This document shows, in pieces, positions 3,716-32,484 of a stretch of DNA of 40,696 bases. The notes beneath the pieces were generated by a model. That model did no database searches and was not told the origin of the DNA. It was given only the letters and a program-made list of their open reading frames with translations. The DNA is from Anaerolineae bacterium. Its GTDB lineage: Bacteria > Chloroflexota > Anaerolineae > Aggregatilineales > J027. The translations under genes and the position numbers were made by a program. Within the stretch, counting starts at the first letter, position 1. Each line of letters starts with the position of its first letter. The stretch is from assembly GCA_012031655.1 (NCBI GenBank), contig JAAUUD010000002.1, forward strand, positions 1 through 40,696, read 5' to 3'.

Positions 3716-4033
3716 ATGGCTTTTGAAACCGTAGCCAGCACAGAAGAACTGGGGCCGGGGAACCGGATTATTGTGGAAGTTGGCGACCTGTGGGTGATTG
3801 TGTTTAACGTCGATGGCCGCTATTACGCCTTTGAAGACCGCTGCACGCATGATGATGGCAGCTTCGATAGCGGCTCGATTGATCAGCAGGCAATTGAATG
3901 CCCCCGGCATGGCGCCCGATTTTCGCTGGAAGATGGCAAGCCCACCATGCCCGCCACCAAGCCAGTGCCGCGTTTTGCCGTGCGCGTGGAAGGCCAAACG
4001 GTTCAGGTGGACATCACGCAACGCCTGAACTAA
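3716..4033 (+). CDS. Rieske [2Fe-2S] ferredoxin-type protein
   Basis: Shows the Rieske pattern CTHDDGSF...(17 aa)...CPRHGARF. The ATG at 3716 is preferred over the ORF-track start 3686, which overlaps the upstream gene. Confidence 0.85.
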   Translation: MAFETVASTEELGPGNRIIVEVGDLWVIVFNVDGRYYAFEDRCTHDDGSFDSGSIDQQAIECPRHGARFSLEDGKPTMPATKPVPRFAVRVEGQTVQVDITQRLN

Positions 4034-4419
4034 ACAACTAAAAAAGGCGGCGGCGGCGGCTCATCCTTGTGTAGGTAGGGCGCTGCAAACTTGAGCAGGT
4101 CGTCCAGCTCGATGGGTTTGGTCATCCACTTCTGGATGCCCAACAATTCGGCTTTGCCGCGCAAGGTGTCGTCTGCGGAAATGACGAAAACATGCAGCGC
4201 GTCGCCTTTGGGCATTTTGCGGATATGCTGCAAAACGACCATCCCAGACACTTCTGGCAGGTGCATATCCAGCAGAACAAGGTCAAAGGGGTCTTCTTTT
4301 TCCAACAGGGCGATTGCTTGCCAGGCCGTAGCAGCAATGTGCACCTGATGCCGATGGAAGAGCCGTTGATACAGAATGCCAAGTTCGGGTGTATCTTCGA
4401 CGACCAGCAGTTTGCTCAT
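4030..4419 (-). CDS. Stand-alone response-regulator receiver (CheY-like) protein
   Basis: MSKLLVVEDTPE..., DLVLLDMHLPEVSG, VFVISADD and TKPIEL are receiver motifs. The C-terminal PPPPP tail is encoded by (GGC)5 at 4046-4060. Its stop codon overlaps the stop of the convergent Rieske gene. Confidence 0.85.
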   Translation of the reverse strand: MSKLLVVEDTPELGILYQRLFHRHQVHIAATAWQAIALLEKEDPFDLVLLDMHLPEVSGMVVLQHIRKMPKGDALHVFVISADDTLRGKAELLGIQKWMTKPIELDDLLKFAAPYLHKDEPPPPPFLVV

Positions 4420-4497
4420 GTTCACCTCTCCATGCCAAAAGTACCCGCTTTCTTCGTCCCGTGTCAAGCTCTTTGTATAATGGTCGGTGGCGAAAAA

Positions 4498-4527
4498 TGC
4501 AAACCGGGAAAGTGCAAACCAGGAAGG
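4498..4527 (+). repeat. Tandem 15-nt direct repeat in the leader of the lipoprotein gene
   Basis: TGCAAACCGGGAAAG (4498-4512) is followed directly by TGCAAACCAGGAAGG (4513-4527), matching at 13 of 15 positions. The second copy contains the RBS for the ATG at 4536. A TATAAT lies at 4476-4481. Confidence 0.6.
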
Positions 4528-4535
4528 TGCTCTTG

Positions 4536-5262
4536 ATGAAGTGGATCAGCCTTTGGATGCTTAGCTTGGTGTTGGTGCTGGCCGCGTGCGAAGAAGACAC
4601 GGTCGAGGTGCCGGCGCCCCAACCCCGCGCGACCACGGCGCCAGCCCAGGACGCCGCCGTACAACAACCGCCCCCTGTGGTAACGCGTGTCATCACCCGA
4701 ACGCCTGTGCCCAGTGCGCCTGGCGCGGTGGGGGCTGCGACGATTGACCCTGCCCTGGCTGCTTATGCAGGCGCCTGGACCCTGATCTTGCGTCATGATG
4801 TATTCGATAGCGTCATGGGCGACCAGTTGACCTATAGTGCTTCAGCAACGGTTAATGTTGGGCTGGATGGCAGCGTCAGCGGGGCGGGCATATATTCTCA
4901 AAACCTGGTGGCTGGGAATTGCCCCACCGAGGTGCTCAACGAAGAAGCGCCGAGCTTTGCTGTGCTGGGCCAACTACGCGACCTACAGGGCCAGCCCACC
5001 ATTGACCTGACCCTGCAACCTATCAACCTGACCCTGAACGAGCGCTACCGCGTGCGCTGCTTTGAACCCGACACCGGGTTTCCGATTGATACGGATACTG
5101 AAACGCAGTTCCTGTGGAATGCGCTTATTGTAGCAAATCTGCTGAGCTACTCTTTTTCGCTGGATGGGGGGGGTAGCGGTTGACCAGGAGCATAACCTGC
5201 TGAACCTGACCGGCGGCACCCTGACGGGCACTATGGAAACTGAGGTGTCGTTCGGACGCTAG
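4536..5262 (+). CDS. Hypothetical lipoprotein (frame broken at a G8 run)
   Basis: MKWISLWMLSLVLVLAAC is a signal peptide with a lipobox. The ORF stops at 5183, just after the G8 run 5166-5173. A 1-nt correction there extends it as ...FSLDGGG-AVDQEHNLLNLTGGTLTGTMETEVSFGR to the TAG at 5260-5262. Confidence 0.6.
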
Positions 5263-7795: not shown

Positions 7796-9479
7796 TCATA
7801 CCCCGGAACGCAGCACAGAGTAGAGCAGCCACAACCCCAGTCCGGTCGAGACGATAAACGCGGCCAGCATGATGGCCAGCACCCAGGTAGAACCGCCTGC
7901 CGCCACAATCGGAATCAGGAAGGATAAGCCAATAATGATCGCTGCGATGGTGATGCTCACTGATACCCGGCTGGCAATTTTATCTAACCGATTGAGCGCG
8001 TCGTCCAGGTTGGAATGATGTAGCTTGATTTCCAACTCGCTCTGGCGCAGTTGGCGCAGGATGTCTGTGCTTGCTTCTGGGGCGCGCAGCAGGAACTCGG
8101 CCCAGTCGCCAATCCCCTTATTGATGGGCTGGCTCCAGTACTCCGGCTTGAGGATATGCCAGCGCAGGCGGTTAATGTAGGGTTCGGAGACGGAAAAGAT
8201 ATCAAAACTAGGGTCCAGGCCCTGGCCCACCCCTTCGAGGATCACCAGCGTTTTGCTGAGCAACCATAAGTCGGTGGGCAGTTGCAAGTTATGGCGGAAG
8301 GCAATGGGCACCAGTTCGTTGATGATGCGGGTGGCGCGGATCTCGCGCAGGGGCATTCCATAGTAGCGGCGCAGCAGGCGCACCACATCTCGCCGCAGGG
8401 CATCGCGTTCGAACTCCCCGTGGGTGATGCCCATATTGATGAGCGTGTCCATCACGGCTTCATCCTGAAGCTTGATAACCCCCGCATAAAGCCGGAGCAG
8501 GTTCAGCCGGTCGCGCGGGCTCAGCCAGCCCACCATGCCGAAGTCGATCAGACCGATCACACCACCTTCCATGATCAGCAGGTTGCCGGGGTGCGGGTCC
8601 GCATGGAAGAAGCCATCCTCAAAAATTTCTTTGATGAGGAAGCGAGCGGCGTTAAGCGCGATCTGGTGGGGATCGTGACCTGCGGCCACCAGGGCCTCGC
8701 GCTGGTCAATTTTGATGCCCACGATGCGCTCCTGAACCATCATACGGTGTGTGCTGTATTCCCAATACACGCGAGGGATGTGCAGGTAAGGCTCGTTTGC
8801 AAAACTCTCGCGGAAGCGGTCTGCGTGGCCGCCTTCGTGGCGGTAGTCCAACTCCATCGAAAGGGGTGTAAGCGAAGTCTTCTGCGATGCCGGGCAGGTC
8901 GTAGAGCTTGCTGAGGTTGGTGTTGCTTTGCAACAGGCTGGCCAGGTCATGGATGATGGCTAGGTCCACATCAATGATGCGTTGAATGCCGGGGCGTTGG
9001 ACTTTGATCACCACCGGCGTGCCGTCCTTCAGTTGGGCGGCGTGCACCTGCGCCAGCGAAGCCGCCGCAATTGGCAAGGAATCCACGTTCTGGAATATTT
9101 CGTCCAGCGGGTGCCCCAGTTCGCGCTCAATAACCTGGTGAATCGTTGCCCAGGGTTCTGGCGGGACCTTGTCTTGCAGTTTGCTGAGTTCTTCCAGATA
9201 ACGGGTAGGCAGGACATCCGGGCGTGTGCTGAGCACCTGGCCCAGCTTGATAAAGGTGGGGCCCAGTTCTTCCAGCGCCATACGCACCCGTTCGGGGGTG
9301 GTCAGGCGTTGGGCCGAAAGGCCACGCCGCAGGCGCCGCCGCCGGAGCAAGGGAAGGTCCACCGGCAGGCCCAGGCGTTGCACCACATCTCCAAAACCGT
9401 ATTTAATGAGGACCTGGGCAATCTCGCGATAGCGCAGCAGGTTACGGGTGAGCTGGATCGGAAAAGGTTGGCGATTCAT
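7796..9479 (-). CDS. ABC1/UbiB (AarF) family atypical protein kinase with C-terminal TM segments; frame broken near 8872
   Basis: LGPTFIKLGQVLSTRPDVLP, AAASLAQVHAA and VVIKVQRPG lie in ORF 8706..9479. ELDYRHEGGHADRFRESF, MVQERIVGIKID, FFHADPHPGNL and IDFGMVG lie in ORF 7796..8950. The two fragments join at ...IAEDFA / TPLSMELDY. Confidence 0.85.
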
Positions 9480-11701: not shown

Positions 11702-11734
11702 CTTTTCTTACCGCCCTGGAGGAGGGGATGCAGC

Positions 11735-12890
11735 ATGTATGACCTGGACCAGTTACGGCGCACAGAATTTCCGCTAAGCGCCCACGAACTTTACTTCAAC
11801 CATGCGGGGATTTCGCCCATTCCAGAGCGTAGCCGCCAGAAGATGCAGTGGTCGGTGGGGCGGTTGGCAGAAAACCCTTACGCCATTTTCAAGAGGATGG
11901 CATTCCGCTCTTTATGCGCTTTCAGGCAGACTTTGCCGCCTACCTGAACGCTGCCAGCCCAAGCGAGATTCTCCCCATCACCACCACCTCCGCCGGGCTG
12001 AACGCCATCGCCCAGGCGTTGCCGCTGGAGCCGGGCGACAACCTCTGCTTCTGCGAAACCGAATTCCCCTCGAACGCCTATCCCTGGATGAGCCGGGCGC
12101 AGGATGGAATTGAGGTGCGGCAGGTGCCCGCCGTGAACGGCGGGCTGGACCTGACCACTTTGCGCCCGTATGTGGATGAGCGGACCCGGTTGGTCGCTGT
12201 GAGTGCGGTGCAATTCTTCTCAGGGCATCGGGCGGACCTGGCTGCCCTGGGGGCGTTCTGTCGGGAGCGAACATCCTGTTGGCGGTGGATGCGATCCAGG
12301 CTATTGGGCACATGCGCTTGATGTGCAGGCCTGCAGATTGATGTGATGGCTTTGGCGGGCAGAAGTCGCTGCTGGCGCCGCCTGGCATTGGCGCGATGTA
12401 TGTGCGGGCAGCGGTGGCGGAGCGCCTTCTGCCGCGCATGATTGGCCCCAACGCCACGCGCGATTGGCTTTTTTGGCTGGATTATGACCTGACCCCGGCA
12501 GACGGAGCCGAACGCTTTGCCATGGGTACGCCCAATGTTGTGGGGATGTTTGGCGCAGTGGAAAGCCTGGCCTTGCTGCGCGAACTGGACCCCGACCTGA
12601 TCGACCAGCATGTGACCGGCCTGGCGGCGGAGGCTATCGAGGGGCTGGCCGGGCTGGGCTATCACGTCGTCACCCCGCGTGAGGAGCACAGCGGCATCGT
12701 CACCTTCCGCACCGAACGCAGCAAGGAAGACAGCGCGGCCTGGTTGGGGCAGCTCGCAGAGCGCCGGTCCTACCTGGCGCTGCACCTGGATAAAGCCGCC
12801 CTTCCGCACTTGCGTTTATCTTTTCACTGCTATAATACGAGGCAAGAGGTGCATCAATTCCTGAACATGCTCGAAAGGGTGCAATCATGA
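11735..12890 (+). CDS. Class V aminotransferase (cysteine desulfurase / selenocysteine lyase-like), five frame breaks
   Basis: The fragments join as MYDLDQLRRTEFPL..LYFNHAGISPIP..., ...HFQEDGIPLF..ITTTSAGLNAIAQAL..., NILLAVDAIQAIGHM, LDVQAC, IDVM and FGGQKSLLAPPGIGAMYVRA... (the putative PLP lysine is in GGQK). The breaks are near 11880, 12269, 12315, 12335 and 12349, and all are -1. Confidence 0.7.
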
Positions 12891-14210
12891 CCGATAGCCT
12901 CGAGCCAAAAAATGGGCGCCGCCCGCCATGCGCGCCCCGGAAGACACGGGTCTTAACCTGGGGTTGCTCAGCGATCTGGGCATAAAGACCATTTACTTTG
13001 CAGGCTATATCAATGGGCTGGATATTGCGCGGCGCATGGCGTTGCCCTTTACTGGCGTGGTGGATCGCATCATCGACTTCATGAAGCGCGAAAAGTGGAT
13101 TGAGGTGCGCGGGCAGAGCGGGGTGGGCGAGGCGGGTTACGAGTATGTCATCTCGCAGAAGGGTTCTGAAAAGGCGCGCGAAGTGCTGGAGCGCGGCCAG
13201 TACGCCGGGCCTTGTCCGGTCACCTTGCCGCAATACATCTTTGCGATGAAAGCCCAGGCCCGCCAGAAGCACTACGTCAACCGTGACACGATTCAGGAAG
13301 CCGTCGCGGGTTTTAACTTTGAGCAAGAGGTGCTGGACCGCATTGGCCCGGCAGTGAACTCTGGCAAGGCGGTGTTTATGCATGGCCCGCCAGGGAACGG
13401 TAAAACGACCCTGGCGAGCCGGGTCGGGCGCACAGTGCTGGGCCAGGACATCTGGATTCCCTATGCGATTGACGTCGATGGCCAGGTGATTCGCATCTTT
13501 GACAGTGTGAATCACGAGGTGATCGAGCATGGGCAGGACATTAACGAGCGTGCCGGGCAGACGGGGGTTCGGCGTGACCCGCGTTGGGTGCGCATCAAGC
13601 GCCCGATGATCATGGTCGGTGGCGAGTTAACGATGGAAGGGCTAGACCTGGTCTACGACCCCAGCAATAAGTTCTACGAAGCGCCCTTCCAGATGAAGGC
13701 CAACGGCGGCTTGTTCTTTATCGATGACTTTGGCCGCCAGATGATGCGCCCGCAAGACCTGCTGAACCGCTGGATTGTGCCGCTGGAAAGCCGGTTGGAC
13801 TTCCTGACCCTGAACACCGGGCGCAAGATCGAGATTCCGTTTAATGTGATGATCTTCTTTTCGACGAACCTAGACCCCAAACAACTGGTAGACGAAGCCT
13901 TTCTGCGCCGTATTCCCTACAAAATCCACATTGGCGACCCCACCTTCGAGCAGTTTCGCGATATCTTCAAGTTCGTTTGCGCGCAAAGAAGGTCCCCTAT
14001 GATGAGCAAGGGCTGGCCTACCTGTTGCAGGAGTGGTACATCAAGAAGAATCGGCCCCTGCGGGCGGTGCACCCGCGCGACATTCTGGACCAGTTGTTGG
14101 ATATGTCGCGCTATTTGAACAAACCGCCGCAGCTCACCAAAGAATTGCTGGATCATGCTGCCTCGGCCTACTTTGTGGACCTGGGTGCGTACACCGCCGT
14201 AACAAAGTGA
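12887..14210 (+). CDS. Uncharacterised AAA+/P-loop ATPase with a wHTH-like N-terminal domain; frame broken near 13976-13978 and possibly at A6 12907-12912
   Basis: Walker A GPPGNGKTT lies at 13384-13410. A Walker B-like LFFIDDFGRQ lies at about 13711, roughly 107 aa later. Sensor-1-like MIFFSTNLDP and DEAFLRRIPYKIHIGDP follow. The C-terminus continues in ORF 13977..14210 (IFKFV-LRAKKVPYDEQGLAYLL...). The start is either ATG 12887 (an ATGA overlap with the upstream stop, needing a 1-nt fix in the A6 run) or ATG 12928. Confidence 0.75.
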
Positions 14211-14213
14211 GGG

Positions 14214-15173
14214 ATGATGAGTAGCGAAGCCATTCCGCGACACCTGGTGTTTGTGCTGGAGGATGATACGGTCGTCATCCAGCGCGGCGCGGCGCTCGTG
14301 GAAGTGCTCGAAACCCGCGAAACCCGCAGCTTTGGCAGCTTCGATCATCACCATGACATCACCGACGAAGAACTGGCGCTTTTGCAGGGCGAAGGGTTGG
14401 TGCTGCGCTACGACGATGCCACCATCTGGCTACCGGCTAAGGCGCACCGCCTGGCCCAGGACATGGGCAAGGCGCGCTACTACTTTCTGGATACGCGCCT
14501 TTCGGCACCCTACCTGCGCATTGTGCAGAGTTTGCTCGATAGCACGGACCTGCACGCGCAGTACGAAGCGCGGCTATATGGCGATCGGGTGGCGATTATG
14601 GCGAGTGGGGGCGAGCCCTTCAGCAGCTTGCAGGATGCTGAAGCCGCGCAGACCCTCCTGGCGCAAGCCTTGGGTAAGCAATTGGTGGGGTTGGTGGTGG
14701 AGCGGGTCGAAATCGACACAACCCTGCATGATACGCAGCTCAACGCGCCCGCGCGGCGTGTGGACCTCATCTCTACCGGGCCGCTGGTTTCGCTGGCAGA
14801 CCGTACGGTGGTCCTGGTGGAAGACGATGAAGCGCTGGCTGAAGTGCTGGCGCTCACCCTGCGGCGGGCCCAACCGAATGTATTGGTGGCCCACACTGGG
14901 GAAATCGGGCTGGAAATCATCACTGATGAAGAGCCAGACCTGGTGCTGCTGGACCTCAATTTACCGGATATGCACGGCTATGAAGTGATTGCGCGGCTCA
15001 AGAAAGACCCATTGACCGCCCGCACGCCAATCATCGTGATGAGCGGAAATTCGAGTGAAACGGATATGGTGTTTGCGCTGTATGTGGCCAAGGTGGATGA
15101 TTATCTGGTCAAGCCTGTGGAGCCACGCGTAATCCGACGGCGCGTCCTCACTATACTGACACGGCAGACTTAG
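14214..15173 (+). CDS. Response-regulator receiver protein with an unrecognised N-terminal domain of about 190 aa
   Basis: Intact 319-aa ORF starting 3 nt after the ATPase stop. The C-terminal receiver shows VVLVEDDEALAEVL, DLVLLDLNLPDMHGYE, IIVMSGNS and DDYLVKPV. I recognise no output-domain motif in the N-terminal half. Confidence 0.8.
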   Translation: MMSSEAIPRHLVFVLEDDTVVIQRGAALVEVLETRETRSFGSFDHHHDITDEELALLQGEGLVLRYDDATIWLPAKAHRLAQDMGKARYYFLDTRLSAPYLRIVQSLLDSTDLHAQYEARLYGDRVAIMASGGEPFSSLQDAEAAQTLLAQALGKQLVGLVVERVEIDTTLHDTQLNAPARRVDLISTGPLVSLADRTVVLVEDDEALAEVLALTLRRAQPNVLVAHTGEIGLEIITDEEPDLVLLDLNLPDMHGYEVIARLKKDPLTARTPIIVMSGNSSETDMVFALYVAKVDDYLVKPVEPRVIRRRVLTILTRQT

Positions 15174-15199
15174 GACCTGGGGGCAGCAAGCAAGGCAGC

Positions 15200-15808
15200 A
15201 TGGGCATGGTGATGGTGCTTCTCAGTTTGGTAGGGGGCTTGGTGGCAGGGTGGGCGATTCGGCGCCTCTGGATGCGCTGGCAGGCGCAACGGGTCAGCTG
15301 TCGCCCGCAACTCGCCCCGGCCTGGAGCGCCCCGCCCGAAGTTGTGGAAGCCGTCGCGCGGGATTACCTGGCCTTCTACCGCTACGCGAGCCAGCGCTTG
15401 CCGAATGGATGGTTGCCTTATCTGCGCGACCTGCACCTGCACCTGTGTGATGAGATGCTGCGCAACCAGCGCAACCAGCTCGATGAACGCTTGCGGCACG
15501 ACCGAGGACGTGTGGTGGATATCTTGCGTGCGCATCATCGGGTGGAGGTGCGGCACTTTGGCGCCGACCGCCACAGCTGCATCGTGATTGATTATCAAAC
15601 TGACCGCCGTCTGGCCACCTACGATTATTGGAGCGGTGCGCGCTTGCACACCCAGGATATTGGCAACGCGGGCCTGGTGTTCGCAATGCGCTATGATGAC
15701 CACAGCGCCACCTGGAAGATCGCGCGCTACATCCAGACCCTACCCCAGGGTGTGACCCAGGTTAACGGGCTGGATATGCGCGTTTCGGAGCCACTGCGCC
15801 GCGATTAG
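15200..15808 (+). CDS. Hypothetical membrane-anchored protein (one N-terminal TM helix plus a soluble domain of about 170 aa)
   Basis: MGMVMVLLSLVGGLVAGWAI is followed by RRLWMRW. The soluble part has no catalytic motif. An NTF2/Tim44-like fold is only a guess. Confidence 0.55.
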   Translation: MGMVMVLLSLVGGLVAGWAIRRLWMRWQAQRVSCRPQLAPAWSAPPEVVEAVARDYLAFYRYASQRLPNGWLPYLRDLHLHLCDEMLRNQRNQLDERLRHDRGRVVDILRAHHRVEVRHFGADRHSCIVIDYQTDRRLATYDYWSGARLHTQDIGNAGLVFAMRYDDHSATWKIARYIQTLPQGVTQVNGLDMRVSEPLRRD

Positions 15809-15851
15809 CCCAGGCGGGCACTCATTTAATACCCCAGAAGGATAACGCAGG

Positions 15852-16190
15852 ATGTCCTTTGCCCGGCACGGTTCCTACACGTTTAGCTTTGAATGGGACG
15901 AAAACGACTACTACCAGGACAATGTTCAAACGCTCTCGCGGTTGCCCACACCAGATGTGGTGGCCGAAAAAAGCGAAAAAGCCTTCCAGGCCGCCCTTGA
16001 TGCTCTGCAAGCGATAGGCAGCCACCTTGCCCACTCTTTGAACCAACTGGACACACCGCCGCACCAGGCCGAACTGGAGTTTGGGATGCGCCTGGGGGCT
16101 GATGTGGGGGTTATCACCAAGGGCATGAACGAGGCACACTTTAAATTTCGCCTGGTGTGGCAGTTTGAGGACCAGAGCAACCCTCGATAG
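15852..16190 (+). CDS. Small trypco2-like (CU044_2847 family-like) protein
   Basis: 112-aa ORF with a GAAGGA RBS. Its C-terminal half, ...AFQAALDALQAIGSHLAHSLNQLDTPPHQAELEFGMRLGADVGVITKGMNEAHFKFRLVW, fits the remembered trypco2 signature (F..A...v.p.a..v...l..L...PdEv.VEFGLkLsaeaGa.Iak...eAnFKV.LtW). Confidence 0.6.
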   Translation: MSFARHGSYTFSFEWDENDYYQDNVQTLSRLPTPDVVAEKSEKAFQAALDALQAIGSHLAHSLNQLDTPPHQAELEFGMRLGADVGVITKGMNEAHFKFRLVWQFEDQSNPR

Positions 16191-16203: not shown

Positions 16204-17592
16204 CTAGCGTTGAGGCGCCAGCGGCAGCGTGATGTAGAAGGTGGCTCCTTCGCCTGGCGCGCTGCTGACCTCAATCTGCCCACCGTGAATCTGGATTATC
16301 TTTTGCGTGATGGCCAACCCCAGCCCCGTGCCGCCACTAGCCATGGACCGCGCCTGGTCTACACGGAAGAAGCGCTCAAAGATGCGCGGTTGATCTTCCT
16401 GGGCGATGCCAATGCCCTCATCTTGAATGGTGATGCAGGCGTTGTTTCCCTGGATGACCAGGGAGAGGGTAACCGTGGTGTGGGGCAGAGAGTAGCGGCT
16501 GGCGTTGTGCAGGATGTTCAGGATGGCCCGCGCCAGATGGTTGGAATGCCCCAGGATGAGCGCCGGTGCCCCAGGCAGGCGAACCTGCAAACGCTGCTGG
16601 CGCTCCTGCAGGGTTAATGAGATATCCTCTGCCAGATTGCCGAGCAACTCGCTCAGTTGGAGTGGCTGGAGGGTGAGCGTTTGCGCCTGGTCCAGGGCAG
16701 ACATATCCAGCAGGCTTTCCACCAAAGTTTGCATGTGCTGCGCTAGCCCGTCCAGCTTGCTTAGGTAGCGCTCCCGTTCCGAGGCCGTTTTGGCATGGCG
16801 CAACAGGTAGAGGCTGGATTGTAAATTGGTAATCGGCGTGCGCAGGTCGTGCGAAGCATCGCCCACAAACTGCTCCAACATGGTCACGCGGGCGCGTTCC
16901 ACCCCCAGCGCAATTTGCCGGGCCTGGGCCTGCTGGAGCTGTTGATGCACCTGCTGAAGCTCATCCAGGCTGGTTCGCAGGTAGCCCTGAAGGCGCTCTT
17001 CGTAGGCCAGCAAGTCCGTGGTAAAGCGACTGATGAGGGCCGGATTGGGCGCGCTGGGCGGAAAGCGCCGCCGTGCAGCCTGGAATTGCGCCAGCGTCTC
17101 TGGGCGATACGCGGCAATCACGCCTTCCAGAATATCGAGCACGGGGAGAATTTGCTCTGGTTGAAAAGTGAGCAGGGTAGAAAACTGGCGGAGGCTTTCT
17201 TCTGGGGCGGGGGCCAGGTTATCTTGCCCGCACAGCAAAACCGAGAACTCACCGCACAGGATGATGACAAACCATTCCTGGCGTAGCGGGTCGCCTTCGG
17301 CCAGTGGGATAAAGAGCTGGCTGGCTGGTCCATCCTGGGGGAGGGGGCGGCCTGCAAACACACAAACCTGATGCGCGATTTCCGCCAGGGCGCGGTAGCG
17401 TTCGGTTTCTTTGCGCCAATGCGAGGACTCTTGAAAGCCTGTGAGCAGCAGGGCAGGCAGTTTTTGGCGCAGAACCAGGTCTTCCAGCGTGTGGGAGATA
17501 TGGACCAGGGTTGCTTTGCTACAGGTGATCAACGACAACTGATCAGCAAATCGCTGTTGTAGCAGGTGAAATAAAGAAGTCGTGAGTATCAT
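16204..17592 (-). CDS. Soluble sensor histidine kinase with an N-terminal DICT domain
   Basis: The DICT-like region reads SLFHLLQQRF..KATLVHISHTLEDLVLRQKLPALLLTGFQESSHWRKETERYRALAEIAHQVCVFAG. The H-box is SHDLRTPIT, the N-box HNASRYS, G1 DEGIGI and G2 GTGLGLAI. No TM segment. The ATG at 17592 is preferred; the TTG at 17649 is the alternative. Confidence 0.85.
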   Translation of the reverse strand: MILTTSLFHLLQQRFADQLSLITCSKATLVHISHTLEDLVLRQKLPALLLTGFQESSHWRKETERYRALAEIAHQVCVFAGRPLPQDGPASQLFIPLAEGDPLRQEWFVIILCGEFSVLLCGQDNLAPAPEESLRQFSTLLTFQPEQILPVLDILEGVIAAYRPETLAQFQAARRRFPPSAPNPALISRFTTDLLAYEERLQGYLRTSLDELQQVHQQLQQAQARQIALGVERARVTMLEQFVGDASHDLRTPITNLQSSLYLLRHAKTASERERYLSKLDGLAQHMQTLVESLLDMSALDQAQTLTLQPLQLSELLGNLAEDISLTLQERQQRLQVRLPGAPALILGHSNHLARAILNILHNASRYSLPHTTVTLSLVIQGNNACITIQDEGIGIAQEDQPRIFERFFRVDQARSMASGGTGLGLAITQKIIQIHGGQIEVSSAPGEGATFYITLPLAPQR

Positions 17593-17652
17593 TCCTAAAG
17601 CATCTTTCCTGATGAGTTCTCCCCAATTGATTATCCAGGGTATCTCCAACAG

Positions 17653-17725: not shown

Positions 17726-19099
17726 TTATGCCGTTTTAGCGGGTTCCTCGGGGCTGTGATTGACGGCAGGTTGGTTGAGGTTGCCTGGCAAATTCTGGAT
17801 GGCCTTCAGGATGTCCAACCCAGTGAGGGCCTCCAGAGTCGCGGGGACCTGCGCCACGATGTTGCTGACATCGGCGGCCACTTTCGAGGCCCCGGTGCCG
17901 GTGCCGTTCTCGCCGTTGGAAATCACCACGATGCGCTCGGTCTGGGCCAGCGGCTTGGCGATTTGCGCCACGATCTCCGGCAGCGCCACGATGAGTTGCT
18001 CGATGAGGGCGGCCTGGCTGTAGTTTTGCCAGGCTTCGGCTTTCTGTTGCATGGCGTCGGCGGTGGCCAAGCCCTGCGCCTTGATGACTTCCGCTTCTGC
18101 GAGGCCCTGAGCGCGTTCTGCTTCGGCCTGGCCCTGGGCTTCGGCTTCGATCTCATAGCGGCGGGCATCGGCAATGCGCTGGATGCGGAATTGTTCGGCT
18201 TCGGCGGGGCGGCGAACCGTGGCGTTGAGTTCCTGTTCCTTACGCAGGGTTTCTTGCTCCTGCACTTCGATCTGCTTGCGCTTTTCCACCACCTCGATTT
18301 CCACTTCCTGCTCGCGCACCTTTTGGCGGGTGATGGCTTCTTGCAGGCTATAGGCCAGGTCCGCATCGGCGCGCACGCGCTTCACTTCGGCGTCGTATCC
18401 CGCCTGCTTGATGCCAAAGTCGCGTCGGGCTTCTTCTTCGCGGGTCTGGGCTAGTTGCTCGGCAATCACCGCATCGCGCTTGACTTCCGCAATGCGTGGG
18501 CGGCCCAGGGCTTCCAGGTAGCCTTCTTTGTCCCGAATATCCTTGATCACGAAGCTATCGATGCCCAGGCCCATATTGGCCAGGTCCGTCGCAGAAACAT
18601 CCGCGACTTCCTGAGCGAACTTATCGCGCTCGCGGTAGATTTCTTCCACGGTGAGCGTGCCACAGATGGCGCGCAGGTGCCCGGCGAGGGTTTCGTGGGC
18701 GATATTGATGATCTCAGCGCGTTGCTTGCTCAGAAAGCGCTCGGCGGCGGTGCGAATGCTGACGTTATCGCTGGCGATTTTGATCTGAGCGACACCTTCC
18801 AGCGAGACAGGCACGCCCTGGATGGTGTACACATTGTCCACTGCGACCTCAATGGTCATGATCTCCAGCGAAAGCCAGTCCACGCGCTCCAGAAAGGGGT
18901 ACACAAAGGCGCGTCCGCCTTTGACGATGCGGTAGCTGAGCACCTCGCCGGTTTGTGGGTCTTTATGCTCGCGCCCAGAGATGACCATCACCTGGTTTGG
19001 CCCGACTTTGTATAGGCGGGACAGGTAGACGATGGTGCCCACCAGCATAACAAAAATCAACAACCCAAAGACCACAATAACGCCAAATGCGATGCCCAT
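17726..19099 (-). CDS. Flotillin-like SPFH/Band-7 family protein
   Basis: Intact 457-aa ORF with an N-terminal TM segment and an SPFH core (YKVGPNQVMVISGR...VYTIQGVPVSLEGVAQIKI). A long Ala/Glu-rich coiled-coil flotillin region follows (EAEAQGQAEAERAQGLAEAEVIKAQGLA). Confidence 0.85.
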   Translation of the reverse strand: MGIAFGVIVVFGLLIFVMLVGTIVYLSRLYKVGPNQVMVISGREHKDPQTGEVLSYRIVKGGRAFVYPFLERVDWLSLEIMTIEVAVDNVYTIQGVPVSLEGVAQIKIASDNVSIRTAAERFLSKQRAEIINIAHETLAGHLRAICGTLTVEEIYRERDKFAQEVADVSATDLANMGLGIDSFVIKDIRDKEGYLEALGRPRIAEVKRDAVIAEQLAQTREEEARRDFGIKQAGYDAEVKRVRADADLAYSLQEAITRQKVREQEVEIEVVEKRKQIEVQEQETLRKEQELNATVRRPAEAEQFRIQRIADARRYEIEAEAQGQAEAERAQGLAEAEVIKAQGLATADAMQQKAEAWQNYSQAALIEQLIVALPEIVAQIAKPLAQTERIVVISNGENGTGTGASKVAADVSNIVAQVPATLEALTGLDILKAIQNLPGNLNQPAVNHSPEEPAKTA

Positions 19100-19153: not shown

Positions 19154-19704
19154 TTAGATTTCATCATCCCCAACCAGGGGCTCGACGTGGGCCACACTGC
19201 CAATAAACTTCACAATGCGGACGGATTGCCGCGCGGGATGCTCTCGCCGTGTTTGGCGGCGCGCGCGCTATAGGTCACACGGCTACCTTTGGTGACTAGC
19301 AAAACCTGCCCCACACCATTTGGCGGGATGGGCGTGCTGATCTCTGCGATCTTCCCGATGAGGCTTTCCTGGCGGACTTCCGATGAGTTGGTGCGCGAGA
19401 GGACGGTCACAAACAGGATTTGCCCCACCACGCCAATGATGATGCCTAGCACGCTGGCTGCGGCCAGGCTTTCAATAGCCTCGGCGCCACCTTGCTGGCT
19501 CATGAGGCCGCCCGCGCCAAAGGCGGCCACAAACCAGGAAAGCGCCAACATGCTCAGGCTGCTGTCGCCGCCAATATCAATCCCCAGATCAATATGGAAG
19601 ATATCCAGGGCGCCATCCACCCCCTGAGCAAATACCTGGAAGGCGGCGTACAAAAGCCCAACGCCCAGTGCCGCCCCATAGATGATGGTTAATAATCCCT
19701 CCAT
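19154..19704 (-). CDS. NfeD-family membrane protein (flotillin partner); frame broken near 19229
   Basis: TM helices are followed by an OB-like tail (GKIAEISTPIPPNGVGQVLLVTKGSRVTYSARA). A 1-nt fix gives ...ESIPRG-QSVRIVKFIGSVAHVEPLVGDDEI, ending at the stop at 19154-19156. Confidence 0.75.
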
Positions 19705-26987: not shown

Positions 26988-28451
26988 ATGACCGATATCA
27001 ACATTCCGAAGTCCAACAAGGAACTCACGCAGGAAGAAGCCTCTCTGCGGGGCCTGCGCACCCAGGAGAGCTACCTGGAGAAGTATGGCTTTCACTTTCC
27101 CGATGATCACTATGCCTTTCGCACCCGGCCCGGCCTGGATGCGGAAATTGTGGCGGAAATCAGCCACATCAAGCGCGAACCGGCCTGGATGACCGAGTTC
27201 CGCCTGCGGGCGTATGAATCCTTCCTCGAAAAGCCCATGCCCACCTGGGGTGGCGAGATGGAAGGCATCAAGTTTGATGAAATCTACTATTACGTCCGCG
27301 CCACGGATAAGGAAAACATTGCCAACTGGGACGAAGTGCCAGCAGATATCAAGGCGACCTTCGACCGCCTGGGCATTCCAGAAGCGGAACGGCAGTTCCT
27401 GGCTGGGGCTGGGGCACAGTACGAGTCCGAGGTGGTCTATCATAAGGTGCGCGAGGAGCTTGAAGCCCAGGGCGTGATCTTCCTTTCGATGGATGAGGGC
27501 CTGCGCCAGCACGAAGACCTGGTGCGCGAATACTTCGGCAGCGTGATCCCGTATAACGACAACAAATTCGCAGCGCTCAACAGCGCGGTCTGGAGCGGCG
27601 GCAGCTTTATTTACGTGCCCAAGGGCGTGCACGTAGACATGCCCCTTCAGGCTTACTTCCGCATCAACACCGAGAGCATGGGCCAGTTCGAGCGCACGCT
27701 GATCATCGTGGATGAAGGCGCCTCTGTGCATTACGTGGAAGGCTGCACTGCCCCGATTTACAGCAAAAACAGCCTGCACAGCGCTGTGGTGGAAATCGTG
27801 GTGAAGGCAGGTGGAAAATGCCGCTACACCACCATCCAGAACTGGTCAAACAACGTCTTTAACCTGGTAACCAAGCGCGCGATGGCCTATCGCAACGCAA
27901 CTATGGAATGGGTAGACGCCAACCTGGGTAGCCAGCTCACCATGAAGTACCCGGCAGTGTACATGATGGAAGAGGGCGCGCATGGCGAGATCCTCTCGAT
28001 TGCCTTTGCCGGGCGTGGCCAGCACCAGGACGCCGGGGGCAAGGTTGTTCATGTGGCGCCGCACACCACCAGCCGGATCATCAGCAAGTCGATCAGCAAG
28101 GATGGTGGGCGCGCCAGCTATCGCGGGCTGCTGAAGGTGGCCGAAGGAGCACACAACATCCGGAGTAACGTGGTGTGCGACGCCCTGCTGCTGGACGAGG
28201 ATAGCCGCTCGGACACCTACCCCTACATTGAGGTCGAAGAAAAAGACGTGACGATTGGCCACGAAGCCAGCGTCAGCAAGATCGGGGAAGAGCAGCTCTT
28301 CTACCTGATGAGCCGTGGCCTGAGCGAGGACGAAGCCAACGCGCTGATCGTCAACGGCTTCATTGAGCCGCTGGCCAAGGAGCTCCCAATGGAGTACAGC
28401 ATTGAGCTACGCAAGCTGATCGACATCCAGCTGGAAGGCTCGATCGGCTAA
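26988..28451 (+). CDS. sufB: Fe-S cluster assembly scaffold protein SufB
   Basis: Intact 487-aa ORF with an AAGGAG RBS and typical SufB sequence ([21 protein letters not shown]..., [27 protein letters not shown]). Confidence 0.92.
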
Positions 28452-28468
28452 GCTGACCTGATGTTGAC

Positions 28469-28509
28469 CATGGTAAGGCTGGGGGTCCCCGTGGCCCGGC
28501 CTTACCATG
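28469..28509 (+). other. Strong GC-rich hairpin in the sufB-sufD spacer
   Basis: CATGGTAAGGC (28469-28479) pairs perfectly with GCCTTACCATG (28499-28509). The stem is extended by t80.g98, g81-c97, g82-c96 and g83-c95, leaving an 11-nt loop. A T-rich tract begins only about 30 nt downstream. Confidence 0.6.
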
Positions 28510-28587
28510 CCCCGCTGGATAGGGAAGGGCGCCACGCTCTTTTCTTTTTGATACCTGAACTTTGATTAACCCGCAGGAGATGCACCC

Positions 28588-29940
28588 GTGACGACACGGA
28601 CACGCCGTACGAAAGCATTTAGCGCGCCGCCCTTCACCTGGGCAGAGGTCGAGGCGCGTTCTGTGGCGATGGGCGAGCTAGAATGGTTGCGTGCCATGCG
28701 CCAGCAAGCCTGGGCCACCTACGAAAGCCTGCCCATGCCCACCACCAACGATGAACCCTGGCGCCGCACGGACTACCGCCATATCCGTTGGGAGTCCGCC
28801 GGGCAGTTGACCGATGGCAGCGGCGCCAGCGTGGAAGCCATCCCCGCCGAAAACCGCGCTCCGCTGATCGGGGATGTGCAGGGGGGGCTGATTGCCTGGG
28901 TGGATGGCACCCTGGTGCATTATGAGGTTGACCCATCGCTGACCGCCCAGGGGGTAGTCTTTCAGGATTTGCGCCAGGCCGCGCTGGAGCACCCTGAGTT
29001 GGTGCAGAAGCACCTGTTTACCCATGCGGTGCTGCCAGACGAGGGCAAGTTTGCGGCGCTCAATGCCGCTGCCTGGACCTACGGCCTGTTTGTTTATGTG
29101 CCTAAGAATGTTCACGTCGAGTTGCCGCTGCACAGCATTTTTTACAACACGCAACTGGGCGCTTCGGTGGGGCATGTGCTCATTGTGCTGGACCGTGGCG
29201 CCAGCGCCACCGTGTTGCAAGAGTTCCTCTCGCCGGATGGCGACGACCACGCCAGCTACATCGGGGCTACTGAGTTGCTGGTGGGGCAGGCGGCCAACCT
29301 TAAGTACGTGGGCCTGCAAAATTGGGGCCACCACACCTTTGAGTTCAGCCACCAGCGCGGGCGCGTGGAGCGCGATGGCCAGCTGGATTGGGTGGTGGGG
29401 ACAATGGGCGGCAAGCTCACCAAAGCCTTTTTGGAAATTTACCTGGATGGCCCCGGCGCATGGAGCCGCATGAGCGGCATGTACTTTGCGGACGGCACCC
29501 AGATGATTGACCACGACACCCTGCAGGTGCACAATGCGCCAAACACCACCTCGGACCTGCTCTTTAAAGGGGCGCTGACGCAAGAAGCGCGGAGTGTCTG
29601 GCAGGGCATGATCCGTGTGGTGAAGGATGCGCAGAATTCCGACGGGTTCCAGGCCAACCGCAACCTGATGGTGCGGCCCACCGCCCGTGCGGATAGCATC
29701 CCGGGGCTGGAAATCGAAGCGGACGATGTGCGCTGCACCCATGCGGCTACCGTCGGCCAACTGGATGAAGAGCCGGTCTTTTACCTGGAATCGCGGGGTA
29801 TTCCACGTCAGGAGGCCGAACGGCTCATCGTGAATGGGTACTTCTGGGATGTGCTGGAGCGCATTCCATTTCAGGATGTGCAGAACCGCCTGCTGGCGGA
29901 TGTGGACTATAAGTTCCTGGTTGGTTGGCAACCGGACTAA
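28588..29940 (+). CDS. sufD: Fe-S cluster assembly protein SufD
   Basis: Intact 450-aa ORF with a GTG start after the RBS GCAGGAGA. It is a SufB paralogue-type sequence (FAALNAAAWTYGLFVYVPKNV..., THAATVGQLDEEPVFYLESRGIPRQEAERLIVNGY). Confidence 0.88.
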   Translation: MTTRTRRTKAFSAPPFTWAEVEARSVAMGELEWLRAMRQQAWATYESLPMPTTNDEPWRRTDYRHIRWESAGQLTDGSGASVEAIPAENRAPLIGDVQGGLIAWVDGTLVHYEVDPSLTAQGVVFQDLRQAALEHPELVQKHLFTHAVLPDEGKFAALNAAAWTYGLFVYVPKNVHVELPLHSIFYNTQLGASVGHVLIVLDRGASATVLQEFLSPDGDDHASYIGATELLVGQAANLKYVGLQNWGHHTFEFSHQRGRVERDGQLDWVVGTMGGKLTKAFLEIYLDGPGAWSRMSGMYFADGTQMIDHDTLQVHNAPNTTSDLLFKGALTQEARSVWQGMIRVVKDAQNSDGFQANRNLMVRPTARADSIPGLEIEADDVRCTHAATVGQLDEEPVFYLESRGIPRQEAERLIVNGYFWDVLERIPFQDVQNRLLADVDYKFLVGWQPD

Positions 29941-29956
29941 CTCAGGGTAGAGTAAG

Positions 29957-29983
29957 GGCGCTTCGTGAAGAAGCGTCTTTTTT
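29957..29983 (+). terminator. Intrinsic terminator after sufD
   Basis: GGCGCTTC, loop GTGAA, GAAGCGTC forms an 8-bp stem (with one G.U pair) followed by T6 (29978-29983). Confidence 0.65.
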
Positions 29984-30057
29984 CCTGGTTGGTGCCATAA
30001 GCGCTGGCTTATCAAGTCCATAAGTAAAGTCTAATGTCAGAAAGGGTAGCAAGGACG

Positions 30058-30909
30058 ATGACCAACAAGGGCTATGCCGTCCCCGAAGCACTGGTATCGA
30101 CGCAGTGGGTGGCGGAGAACCTGAATAACCCGAACGTGCGGTTGGTGGAAAGCAACGAAGACACGCTGCTCTACGCACAGGGGCACATCCCCAGTGCTGT
30201 GCATATCGACTGGGCCAAAGACCTCAACGACCAGGTCCGTCGCGACTACCTGAGCAAAGAGGCGTTCGAGCAACTGATGGCTGCTAACGGCATCAGCAAC
30301 GATACGACCGTGGTGTTCTATGGCGACAAGAACAACTGGTGGGCGGCTTATGCCTTCTGGGTGTTTAAGCTGTTTGGGCACAAGGATGTGCGCTTGATGG
30401 ACGGCGGGCGCCTGAAGTGGGGAGCAGAGAGCCGCGAGATGACCCGCGAGGTGCCCAGCTATCCCCAGGGGACCTACAAAGCGCAGGCACGCACTGATTA
30501 CAAGATTCGTGCCTTCCGTGACCAGGTGCTGGCCCATGTGAACCAGAGCGGCCCGCTGGTGGATGTGCGTAGCCCGGGCGAGTTCAGTGGCGAGTTGCTG
30601 CACATGCCCAACTACCCGCAGGAAGGCGCGCTACGCGGTGGGCACATCCCTGGGGCGCGGAACATCCCCTGGGCGCGGGCGGCCAATGAAGACGGGACCT
30701 TTAAGAGTGCCGATGACCTGCGCGTGATTTATGAGCAGGAGCAGGGTTTTAACTCTGATCAGGATGTTATCGCCTATTGCCGGATTGGGGAGCGGAGTTC
30801 GCATACCTGGTTTGTGCTGACCTACCTGTTGGGCTACCCCAGCGTCCGCAACTACGACGGCAGTTGGACGGAATGGGGCAACAGTGTCGGCGTGCCGATT
30901 GAGAAGTAA
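30058..30909 (+). CDS. Two-domain rhodanese (thiosulfate sulfurtransferase, CysA/SseA-like)
   Basis: The active-site loop [13 protein letters not shown] is followed by [10 protein letters not shown]. The tandem rhodanese architecture closely resembles actinobacterial CysA-type enzymes. The alternative start at ATG 30034 lacks an RBS. Confidence 0.85.
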
Positions 30910-30934
30910 GCGAGCGGGTATGCTAGTCTGGGTC

Positions 30935-30965
30935 AACAGAGCGCTTCGGCGCTCTGTTTGGTTTC
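30935..30965 (+). terminator. Intrinsic terminator after the rhodanese gene
   Basis: AACAGAGCGC, loop TTCG, GCGCTCTGTT forms a 10-bp stem followed by TGGTTTC. Confidence 0.7.
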
Positions 30966-31035
30966 ATTGATCACCTGTACGGCTAAGCATGTTCTCGTAA
31001 ACTGGAGGGAGCGCGGTTAACAAGGAGCATAACCC

Positions 31036-31935: not shown

Positions 31936-32011
31936 GCGCGGATTGGCACCTTGCCCCAGTTTGACTGGGCAAGGTACGATGGAAAGGCACGAAGGATAAG
32001 GAAGGTGCCAG

Positions 32012-32446: not shown

Positions 32447-32484
32447 CGGTCAGGGTTGTGCAACAAAGCACAGGAGGTACCCCC

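Follow-up and report, generated by a model that had tools for sequence, protein, structure and literature searches.

The locus lies in a 40,696-nt stretch of Anaerolineae DNA (hereafter the window) and consists of four genes on the same strand, hereafter labelled G1–G4 (Table 1). G1 and G2 are separated by 3 nt (14211-14213), G2 and G3 by 26 nt, and G3 and G4 by 43 nt, as a first-pass annotation of the window had described. At its 5′ end, G1 overlaps the stop codon of the preceding class-V aminotransferase gene within an ATGA at 12887-12890, again as described, and the same 4-nt overlap is present in most tabulated relatives. At the other end, the cassette does converge on a DICT histidine kinase gene, with the stop codon of G4 13 nt from that of the minus-strand kinase. 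The ORFs and spacings of the first-pass annotation stand; its intact G1 reading frame and its Trypco2 assignment of G4 do not, and its wHTH-like domain in G1 could not be confirmed.

Table 1 Features of the G1–G4 locus, in window coordinates
Feature	Position	Strand	Description
Class-V aminotransferase (cysteine-desulfurase-like)	11732..12890	+	Aminotran_5, tblastn
G1	12887..14210	+	Divergent AAA+ ATPase, ~441 aa after repair
Probable 1-nt indel in G1	12890..12912	+	After ATG 12887, before the conserved codons for KKWAPPAMR
Definite 1-nt frame break in G1	13976..13989	+	One base fewer than in all seven close relatives
G2	14214-15173	+	N-domain and receiver
G2 N-terminal domain (aa 1-170)	14214..14723	+	AlphaFold2 model
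G2 receiver (REC) domain	14805..15164	+	Response_reg
G3	15200..15808	+	Predicted TM helix and NTF2/Tim44-like domain
G4	15852..16190	+	Trypco1 / CU044_2847 (‘Pepco’) family, 112 aa
DICT-HisKA-HATPase_c histidine kinase	16204..17649	−	Pfam domains; convergent to G4

G1 had been taken for a single ORF, which it is not in the given sequence, where its coding region is spread over three frames. From the ATG at 12887, translation ends after 32 codons; the AAA+ body lies in a second frame (ORF 12928-14118) and the last 76 conserved residues lie in a third (ORF 13977-14210). With tblastn, G1 is matched in two parts, in frames 1 and 3. DNA alignments show the relatives to be uninterrupted at both break sites. 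The downstream break is definite: the frame switches between IFKFVCA.. and ..KKVPYDEQGLAYL, the alignment with the relatives contains a single-column gap, and the absent base is most likely an A in cAAAg. The upstream break is probable, with 26 nt, not a multiple of three, from the ATG at 12887 to the TGG at 12913, and an aligned gap of 13 nt in the window against 3, 6, 9 or 12 nt in the relatives. Alternatively, G1 may start at the ATG at 12928, and an internal Met is the annotated start in some homologues (425–428 aa, for example P0016). Both breaks are most likely assembly indels, as suggested by the splitting of neighbouring genes: the aminotransferase is itself spread over three frames (tblastn with the L001 orthologue gives frames 2, 1 and 3, and Aminotran_5 matches its last piece), and an ABC1 kinase gene and a SufS-like gene are also split.

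Once repaired, G1 carries an unplaced N-terminal domain of ~135 residues and an ATPase motif set comprising Walker A (GPPGNGKT, residues 167–174 in its own numbering), Walker B (FFIDDFG), sensor-1 (STN) and RR, in a layout resembling that of the NtrC/MoxR/YifB group. A profile search of the PDB gives weak AAA matches (Vps4, E = 4e-6), and the top Pfam match is Sigma54_activat at 21.1 bits. The wHTH-like character claimed for the N-terminal domain could not be confirmed, with no Pfam match at E ≤ 10 and non-significant PDB sequence matches (best E 0.14); the domain is possibly a winged helix. More than 8,000 homologues were found, of which the best 120 share 63–83% identity, and relatives occur in at least 572 GTDB species genomes. 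The best 80 of these share 53–82% identity and all except one are titled as Chloroflexota lineages; across the class Anaerolineae, the homologues are 425–448 aa long and 53–83% identical. G1 behaves as a slowly evolving, vertically inherited core gene of Anaerolineae, not as a mobile defence gene. Pfam, NCBIfam and PADLOC hold no model specific to the families of G1, G2 or G3. PADLOC models match the window at the level of the P-loop only and, as the proposal of an undescribed module implied, no catalogued system fits.

G2 consists, as first described, of a domain that could not be placed (there given as ~190 aa) and a receiver. The AlphaFold2 model has a mean pLDDT of 87, mostly above 90 in the N-domain, which is built from a beta-rich subdomain and a beta-alpha-beta-beta-alpha-beta (ferredoxin-like) subdomain. 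No match to this domain was found in Pfam, or in the PDB by sequence or profile search, and as judged by these comparisons it is outside every known family. In iterated HMM searches, it occurs solely right behind G1, with the exception of one stand-alone paralogue in L033. The receiver matches Response_reg (Pfam E 9.2e-24), and its leading Foldseek matches in the PDB are receiver domains with an rmsd of ~1 Å. In the window, it retains the full canonical residue set (the EDD pair, D247, S and K). Among 31 orthologues, the acceptor position is D in 20, N in 5, E in 3, S in 2 and H in 1, and because the Asp is thus replaced in 11 of the 31, the suggested phosphorylation gating is ruled out as a general mechanism.

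G3 is modelled as crossing the membrane once, through an N-terminal TM helix that precedes an NTF2/Tim44-like domain, in agreement with the TM helix and soluble domain first proposed. The AlphaFold2 model (pLDDT 88, pTM 0.80) comprises a helix spanning residues 2–27, then three more helices and a five-stranded curved sheet, in a folded domain of ~150 aa. Foldseek matches in the PDB include the IMS domain of PARC6 (6jzn_B, E = 4e-4), the Tim44 C-domain, mL45 and VirB8. Positive charges come after the TM helix, so the folded domain is predicted, from the positive-inside rule alone, to be cytoplasmic. This small family has 87 representatives among 1.84 billion proteins.

Gene context was counted over 90 non-redundant loci, the window among them; 80 were the top-scoring loci from a GTDB set of at least 572, and the counts are thus no unbiased census. 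The G2 N-domain lies behind G1 in 30 of the 90 loci and G3 is downstream of G2 in 23. The other genes near G1 are GDPD (33 loci), clpX (27), the aminotransferase, directly upstream (27), tig (26), clpP (25), an epimerase (19), obg (18), yjeF (11) and Trypco1 (7). The G1–G2–G3 order is seen in more than 20 species, its genes overlapping or separated by short gaps (G1/G2 and G2/G3; examples are L087 11329/11329, L093 11347/11344 and L091 12274/12271), and its recurrence is clearly non-random. By contrast with this order, which is conserved across many Anaerolineae, the synteny expected of all four genes extends to G4 in the closest relatives only: the adjacency of G4 is recurrent within one shallow clade. 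The DICT kinase is a neighbour and no conserved member of the cassette. Its DICT region has no match in the 86 other loci searched, and the only kinase match among the seven close relatives is an unrelated CHASE4 kinase in L088, ~30% identical over the catalytic region.

G4 was first assigned to trypco2 / CU044_2847. The second part of this assignment holds (NCBIfam NF041216, E = 3.3e-13, 50.1 bits, cut-off 23), as does the length of the protein; Trypco2 gives no match at E ≤ 0.1, and the Pfam family is instead Trypco1 (PF19493, E = 1.1e-14, 55.2 bits, cut-off 24.6). Over its full length, G4 can be aligned with a canonical Trypco1 encoded on a Nostoc plasmid, where the gene order is Trypco1, trypsin-like peptidase, AAA, FGE. 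Whereas the Nostoc gene adjoins its peptidase gene, G4 has no protease gene in the window, which is free throughout of trypsin-like protease, STAND and vWA-MoxR genes, as first reported. [quoted passage not shown] Among the 90 loci, Trypco1 is restricted to a shallow clade in which G1 identity is 79% or more and seven of eight members carry it; it is found in none of the 82 loci with G1 at most 74% identical, even with a broadened HMM. In these seven carriers, the gene is downstream on the strand of the operon, directly adjacent in four (11–45 nt from the preceding gene) and separated from G3 by one to three opposite-strand genes in three (L001, L007 and L090); in L089, G3 has been lost and Trypco1 comes after G2. 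Such retention would fit co-transcription and a functional link of some kind within the close clade. Synteny at this depth also spans ~25 kb of unrelated genes, with flotillin/NfeD, glycerate kinase and Suf genes equally syntenic.

These observations are best explained, with a probability somewhat better than even, by a conserved Anaerolineae AAA+ operon, G1–G2–G3, and a lineage-specific neighbour, G4, inherited through local gene order. The evidence does not support a new four-gene defence system, because Trypco1 is a recent neighbour confined to the closest relatives. The undescribed NTPase-centred module first proposed survives as the tight, conserved three-gene operon, without a Trypco protein teamed with the ATPase and receiver in a conflict architecture. 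It is highly improbable that all four genes act as one conflict or stress module, in which a pore-forming Trypco1 effector would be controlled by G1 and the phospho-receiver G2 in place of a protease, perhaps at the membrane through G3. Such a module would account for the tight same-strand spacing, the downstream position of Trypco1 in close relatives, the AAA ATPase gene in canonical Trypco1 systems, the apparently intact G4 despite only 37–56% identity among relatives, and the lack of a match to a catalogued system. Against it, the 82 loci that lack Trypco1 include many with G1–G2–G3, opposite-strand genes intervene in three carriers, and unrelated genes are just as syntenic. G1 is a slow-evolving core gene with housekeeping neighbours, and its similarity to the MoxR-type ATPase found in canonical systems is confined to the P-loop region (hhalign probability 80%, 124 columns). 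Four Trypco1 carriers (L001, L007, L090 and L091) also lack the receiver Asp. Unlikely, though less so, is a G4 left over from a decayed protease–Pepco defence island near the operon and now inert or serving a protease encoded elsewhere. The family has been described beside serine or cysteine proteases (Kaur et al. 2020, PMC7159879; Evans et al. 2025, bioRxiv 10.1101/2025.11.14.688446), genes have often been gained and lost between G3 and Trypco1 in relatives (DUF2254, BBE, Na/H-Usp and kinase clusters), and TIR-domain genes lie nearby in L088 and L090. However, gene tables and Pfam searches reveal no protease pseudogene or fragment in the window or the eight close loci, and the G4 ORF is intact in all seven carriers with the core EFGxRLGA...HF..L.W kept, which argues for continued selection.

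The operon itself could be a proteostasis module, in which G1 would serve ClpP/ClpX-type machinery as an unfoldase or chaperone and G2 would be an RssB/CpdR-like receiver adaptor; we consider this reading less probable than a remnant G4. In about 26 of the 90 loci, tig-clpP-clpX lie 0.8–5 kb upstream on the same strand, and lon sits at this position in many bacteria; RssB is among the fold matches of the G2 receiver, and many homologues of G1 carry the JGI name ‘predicted ATPase with chaperone activity’. The link is nevertheless one of position, a match to RssB is unspecific among receivers, no protease-docking motif was identified in G1, its best 60 PDB matches include neither Lon nor Clp, and in many loci G1 is next to GDPD or follows a PLP enzyme gene whose stop codon overlaps the G1 start. 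Lower again in probability, yet above a four-gene module, is decay of the locus in this genome, with real mutations rendering the cassette non-functional whatever its ancestral role. One definite and one probable break in G1, two in the aminotransferase and the fragmented ABC1 kinase and SufS-like genes would fit decay. But the three frame segments of G1 contain no internal stops and are 77–87% identical to orthologues on either side of the break, G2, G3 and G4 are intact, and the breakage of essential-type genes (the Suf system) is typical of indel-prone assemblies. Each G1 break, its position only bracketed, fits a single missing base, and at one of them an A run is a candidate site.

Under the favoured reading of a conserved operon with an inherited neighbour, G1–G2–G3, preceded in some loci by the aminotransferase, form a vertically inherited, housekeeping-like operon of the class Anaerolineae. 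G1 is a core gene of the class, usually beside the proteostasis- and ribosome-associated genes tig-clpP-clpX, obg and yjeF, and probably translationally coupled to G2 and G3 in about one third of the examined species. G4 is a bona fide Trypco1/Pepco gene without a partner protease in the window. It came to lie at the 3′ side of the operon in the window's own shallow clade alone, and its adjacency probably reflects inherited local gene order and not module membership. By fold analogy and gene order, G3 may hold the machine at the cytoplasmic face of the membrane, as Tim44 does for its ATPase motor, and G2, a putatively family-specific N-domain fused to an often degenerate receiver, may act through that N-domain to regulate the G1 ATPase or to serve it as an adaptor. 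In lineages that retain the acceptor Asp, the window included, a kinase could feed phosphoryl groups into the G2 receiver.

We read the four genes G1 (an AAA+ ATPase), G2 (an N-terminal domain followed by a receiver), G3 (a transmembrane helix followed by an NTF2/Tim44-like domain) and G4 (a Trypco1-family protein) as a conserved G1–G2–G3 operon with G4 as a lineage-specific orphan neighbour. The first-pass annotation had proposed them as a candidate four-gene trypco2/AAA+/receiver signalling or conflict module; its intergenic gaps of 3, 26 and 43 nt are reproduced by the ORF listing.

Positions of the four genes and of neighbouring features in the window
Feature	Position	Strand	Remark
ABC1 kinase	7799-9479		Split, two overlapping ORFs
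Class-V aminotransferase	11732-12890		Spread over three frames; upstream of G1
G1	12887-14210	+	
G2	14214-15173	+	Intact ORF, 319 aa (ORF listing)
G3	15200-15808	+	Intact ORF, 202 aa (ORF listing)
G4	15852-16190	+	Intact ORF, 112 aa (ORF listing)
DICT + HisKA + HATPase_c kinase	16204-17649	-	Pfam; soluble; stop 13 nt from G4 stop
Flotillin (Band_7 + Flot)	17726-19099	-	Just downstream of the kinase region
Likely NfeD-type partner of flotillin	19210-19704	-	L090 orthologue has weak NfeD matches
Suf iron-sulfur cluster region	26988-33452		SufB, SufD, rhodanese, SufS-like gene
SufB	26988-28451		PT-HINT match absent
SufS-like piece	32883-33452		Spans only HMM positions 110-280

G1 has more than 8,000 homologues in the database, the best 120 being 63–83% identical, and at least 572 relatives came from a GTDB scan with one genome per species. 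Of these, the best 80, top scorers and not a random sample, are titled Chloroflexota/Anaerolineae, except one MAG labelled Oceanobacillus sp. Thirteen further loci were fetched through exact-protein look-up, ORFs were called in all, and iterated HMMs of the G2 N-domain, G3 and Trypco1 were run against the loci, together with neighbour queries, which gave 90 non-redundant loci. Three layouts recur among them: tig–clpP–clpX–G1–G2–G3–epimerase–obg; tig–clpP–clpX–…–aminotransferase–G1–(G2–(G3))–(epimerase)–yjeF; and G1–GDPD. The neighbours are GDPD at 33 of the 90 loci, the aminotransferase at 27, tig, clpP and clpX at 26, 25 and 27, and obg at 18. As for the synteny of the proposed four genes, the first three hold together (G2 N-domain at 30/90 loci, G3 at 23/90) and the fourth drops out, Trypco1 being present at only 7/90. 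G1 and G2, and likewise G2 and G3, frequently overlap or abut in relatives, which marks the triad as a real operon.

At loci L017–L036, L092 and L093, G1 lies 0.8–5 kb downstream of tig–clpP–clpX on the same strand, and the 3′ side of G1 in tig–clpP–clpX loci is occupied by an epimerase gene and obg, or by yjeF. The slot after tig–clpP–clpX is held by lon in many other bacteria. G1 is a slowly evolving core gene, inherited vertically and set among housekeeping genes, a profile unlike that of a conflict system.

G1 had been listed as a single ORF; three-frame translation splits its reading over three frames. The ATG at 12887, within an ATGA that overlaps the upstream stop, runs into a stop codon after 32 codons. 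The AAA+ body occupies a second frame, between ATG 12928 and 14118, the final ~45 codons of which are nonsense, and the conserved C-terminal 76 residues (…KKVPYDEQGLAYL…AVTK) are in a third, at 13977–14210. The breaks were mapped with full-length homologues (425–448 aa) and by aligning the DNA to that of seven close relatives, which places one missing base at ~13976–13989, an A in cAAAg being the likeliest; a second 1-nt loss probably falls somewhere in 12890–12912. The conserved KKWAPPAMR is encoded 5′ of Met 12928, in a different frame from ATG 12887. Met 12928 could still be an alternative start, because some homologues are annotated from an internal Met. We read the breaks as assembly indels, because other genes of the window are broken up similarly. 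Breaks in unrelated genes point to an assembly prone to indels or to widespread pseudogenes, and we keep real decay of G1 as a rival to assembly error. Programmed frameshifting is rejected, as neither site is interrupted in any of the seven close relatives and several unrelated genes of the window are split too.

G1 is an AAA+ protein: Walker A (GPPGNGKT), Walker B (FFIDDFG), sensor-1 (STN) and an RR pair, read from the sequence, follow the AAA+ order, and its profile is similar to those of solved AAA+ proteins. In the PDB profile search, the P-loop and sensor/Arg-finger regions match Vps4/CdvC (best E 4e-6). No specific family model in Pfam, NCBIfam or PADLOC fits. The top Pfam match is Sigma54_activat (residues 257–333, 21.1 bits against a cut-off of 20.2), and Pfam AAA scores 19.2 bits, just under its gathering threshold of 21.2. 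With the NtrC/MoxR/ChlI/YifB–ComM group, G1 shares the Walker A, a ‘G-l-e-A-x-gG-lF-iD-D/E’ Walker B, ‘Q..LL..’, a sensor-1 ‘aTN’ and the Arg pair, but an insertion of ~50 aa, specific to its family, lies between the two Walker motifs. G1 is not a sigma-54 activator (bacterial enhancer-binding protein), since the GAFTGA-like loop motif is absent from both G1 and the family consensus and the putative DNA-binding domain is at the N-terminus instead of the C-terminus. This ~135-aa N-domain looks wHTH-like by eye; it has no Pfam match at E ≤ 10 and gives non-significant matches only in the PDB profile search (best E 0.14; Stn1 winged-helix region, E 0.34). One JGI record labels a G1 homologue PadR-family.

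The receiver called in G2 is borne out by Pfam (Response_reg, E 9e-24). Its fold is canonical CheY-like, with a Foldseek rmsd of ~1 Å to many receivers, and sequence and alignment place every canonical residue in the window copy: EDD, D247 (14952–14954), S and K. The 170-aa domain ahead of it found nothing in Pfam or PDB by sequence and profile searches. In the AlphaFold2 model (pLDDT 87), this domain consists of a beta-rich subdomain and a beta-alpha-beta-beta-alpha-beta unit; Foldseek searches of PDB and BFVD with the G2 model gave lists swamped by receiver matches. Locus L033 has a receiver-less, stand-alone paralogue of the N-domain (3989–4591, ~200 aa), 5.3 kb upstream of G1, and also keeps a normal G2.

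Over 31 species-level G2 orthologues, the acceptor position is D in 20, N in 5, E in 3, S in 2 and H in 1, a replacement of the Asp in 11/31 (35%); it is N in four Trypco1-carrying relatives. With the Asp often replaced, and with an acidic pair that is likewise weakly conserved, many members of the family are pseudo-receivers. The DICT kinase was considered as a conserved partner of G2 and rejected, as the DICT region has no counterpart at the other loci examined. At L088, the sole relative with a kinase adjoining G2, the acceptor is Ser. Phosphorylation gating had been offered earlier as a possibility for the module; with the Asp varying over orthologues and the DICT kinase unique to the window, phospho-control would be a lineage-specific input at most and not a conserved logic. 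G2 is like RssB/CpdR-type adaptor regulators in its CheY-like receiver, in the acceptor Asp of the window copy and in its coupling to an AAA+ gene; unlike those response regulators, it has an N-terminal output domain from no known family, and a cognate kinase is not conserved nearby. At the site of the DICT kinase, relatives have DUF2254, Na/H-exchanger–Usp or Na/Ca-exchanger genes instead.

G3 is modelled confidently by AlphaFold2 (pLDDT 88, pTM 0.80) as a single N-terminal TM helix followed by an NTF2-like domain of three helices on a curved five-stranded sheet. It has no Pfam match. The best Foldseek match is the PARC6 intermembrane-space domain (6jzn_B, E 4e-4, TM-score 0.66 normalised to the target), and others include the Tim44 C-domain (3qk9), mL45 and VirB8. 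The predicted fold thus resembles those of the NTF2-like membrane tethers Tim44 (C-terminal domain), mL45, ARC6/PARC6 and VirB8, but sequence identity is ~10%, and the putative partners are AAA+ and receiver proteins rather than Hsp70, the ribosome or PDV proteins. Positive charges come after the TM helix, which suggests that the domain is cytoplasmic. It is a tiny family: among 1.84 billion proteins it has 87 representatives. G1, G3 and the N-domain of G2 represent undescribed families made of known kinds of parts.

G4 was first assigned to Trypco2; the sole Pfam family at E ≤ 0.1 is Trypco1 (PF19493, 55.2 bits, cut-off 24.6), and NCBIfam CU044_2847 (NF041216) scores 50.1 bits against a cut-off of 23. 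Trypco1 and Trypco2 were defined as neighbours, one or the other but never both, of the trypsin-like peptidases in vWA–MoxR systems (Kaur et al. 2020, PMC7159879) and have been renamed Pepco (Evans et al. 2025, bioRxiv 10.1101/2025.11.14.688446). Pepco–protease effector modules occur in vWA–MoxR (VMAP) ternary systems and Avs4-type STAND systems (PMC7159879; bioRxiv 10.1101/2025.11.14.688446), and an oligomeric beta-barrel made toxic by C-terminal cleavage is described for SsPepco only (Evans et al., bioRxiv 10.1101/2025.11.14.688446). A tblastn search against plasmids found the canonical order on a Nostoc plasmid (L094), CU044_2847 → trypsin-like peptidase → AAA ATPase → FGE, and G4 aligns end to end with this Trypco1, short C-terminus included. 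The short tail does not make G4 a non-canonical Pepco, as the protease-adjoining Nostoc protein ends as abruptly. G4 is an ordinary Trypco1 member in an atypical, protease-less setting.

Several known systems were weighed as homes for the gene set. Pepco–protease modules have in common with the G1–G4 string an AAA-type ATPase gene alongside Trypco1. They differ in that canonical Trypco1 is immediately upstream of the protease, whereas G4 is the final gene of the string, and in that the neighbours of G4 are core-type, vertically inherited genes. The scanned large ORFs of the whole 40.7-kb window hold no trypsin-like protease, STAND or vWA gene, as had been noted before, and no caspase-like protease, FGE or VMAP; the gene tables of relatives likewise have no trypsin-like or caspase-like protease. 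The VMAP trio of MoxR-type ATPase, vWA and VMAP effector is absent, and G1, unlike the ATPase of those systems, is not MoxR-like outside the P-loop (bpMoxR, E 0.015, P-loop only; hhalign against the ATPase of a canonical system covers just 124 columns, at a probability of 80%). The STAND models nSTAND3, NB-ARC and NACHT reach 13–16 bits on G1 against cut-offs of 23–27, none above threshold and all over the P-loop only. IetAS (IetA ATPase + IetS protease) is the top PADLOC/NCBIfam match of G1 (IetA 1.9e-7; IteA 6.6e-6), but only 26–62 residues around the P-loop match, scoring 25 bits where the NCBIfam cut-off is 510, and an IetS-like protease gene is missing here. With its match confined to the P-loop, G1 was rejected as an IetA. 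PADLOC-DB v2 gave no significant full-length match to any catalogued anti-phage system; G2 has short partial matches inside its receiver region (best SduA, E 1e-4), and G3 and G4 have none. Because the defining features of the Pepco–protease, VMAP, STAND and IetAS systems were sought and are lacking, the gene set lies outside all four.

Across the 90 loci, Trypco1 is confined to the clade in which G1 is ≥ 79% identical to that of the window, and 7 of the 8 clade members have it downstream, on the same strand. It directly follows G3 in the window, L087 and L091, and it directly follows G2 at L089, where G3 has been lost. At L007, L090 and L001, one to three opposite-strand genes separate it from G3, insertions which show that Trypco1 need not be co-transcribed with G3. 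L088 lacks Trypco1 and has a CHASE4 kinase and two receivers after G2. A Trypco1 HMM broadened with cyanobacterial and Streptomyces sequences found no further Trypco1 in the loci examined, and metagenome contig scans from the G4 and G3 sides returned no confirmed relatives. Unrelated genes are equally syntenic in the clade (glycerate kinase, flotillin–NfeD–AP_endonuc_2–SH3, SufBD–rhodanese–SufS), so the retention of G4 near the operon is no stronger than background gene-order conservation at that depth. Trypco/AAA+/receiver as a new conflict architecture is not supported by this distribution and synteny. The 43-nt G3–G4 gap contains no terminator or promoter consensus site, and in the region scanned such sites are no more numerous than expected from shuffled sequence. 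Composition (GC3 0.67 in G4, 0.72–0.76 in G1–G3) was rejected as proof of a foreign G4, being similar to that of the DICT kinase (0.70) and not decisive. We consider it highly improbable that Trypco1/Pepco was recruited in the window's clade as an operon output licensed by G1 remodelling, G2 phospho-control and G3 at the membrane rather than by proteolysis; if true, it would amount to protease-independent gating of a Pepco toxin.

Under the reading of a conserved operon with G4 as neighbour, and arguing from folds and gene order throughout, G1 would be the motor of a core Anaerolineae process. G2, present in a third of lineages, would be its partner, serving as adaptor or regulator by means of a private N-domain, and using the receiver or pseudo-receiver as switch; G3 would be a Tim44-like anchor placing the complex on the membrane's cytoplasmic face, and G4 an orphan Pepco-family gene. 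The stop/start overlap with a PLP-dependent aminotransferase (27 loci) and the nearness of tig–clpP–clpX and obg are a hint, and no proof, of a proteostasis or ribosome-linked role. If this reading is right, the claim of a new conflict architecture falls and two modest leads are left, neither surprising to a specialist at present. One is a strongly conserved, functionally undescribed AAA+ family (53–83% identity across the class), Anaerolineae-specific as far as sampled, with two partner families that have no Pfam model: a new N-domain joined to a receiver that is often degenerate, and a membrane anchor resembling Tim44. Adjoining proteostasis and ribosome-associated genes, these proteins are candidates for a core cellular machine in a phylum of filamentous bacteria that has been little studied. 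The other is an intact Pepco/Trypco1 gene without a nearby protease, which bears on the control of newly characterised pore-forming effectors.

Downstream of the operon, the flotillin/NfeD-type pair is followed by an AP_endonuc_2 gene and an SH3_3 gene, a block syntenic with L007 and L090. Less than 10 kb from the operon, the close relatives L088 (1–1508) and L090 (3583–4608) have TIR_2-domain genes, one of them fused to WD40 repeats; conflict-type genes therefore do occur in the neighbourhood. At L089 (1–1624), SufB has a PT-HINT (intein-like) match inside its SUFBD core. In the window, the Suf region lies 11–17 kb downstream of a second cysteine-desulfurase-like gene coupled to G1.
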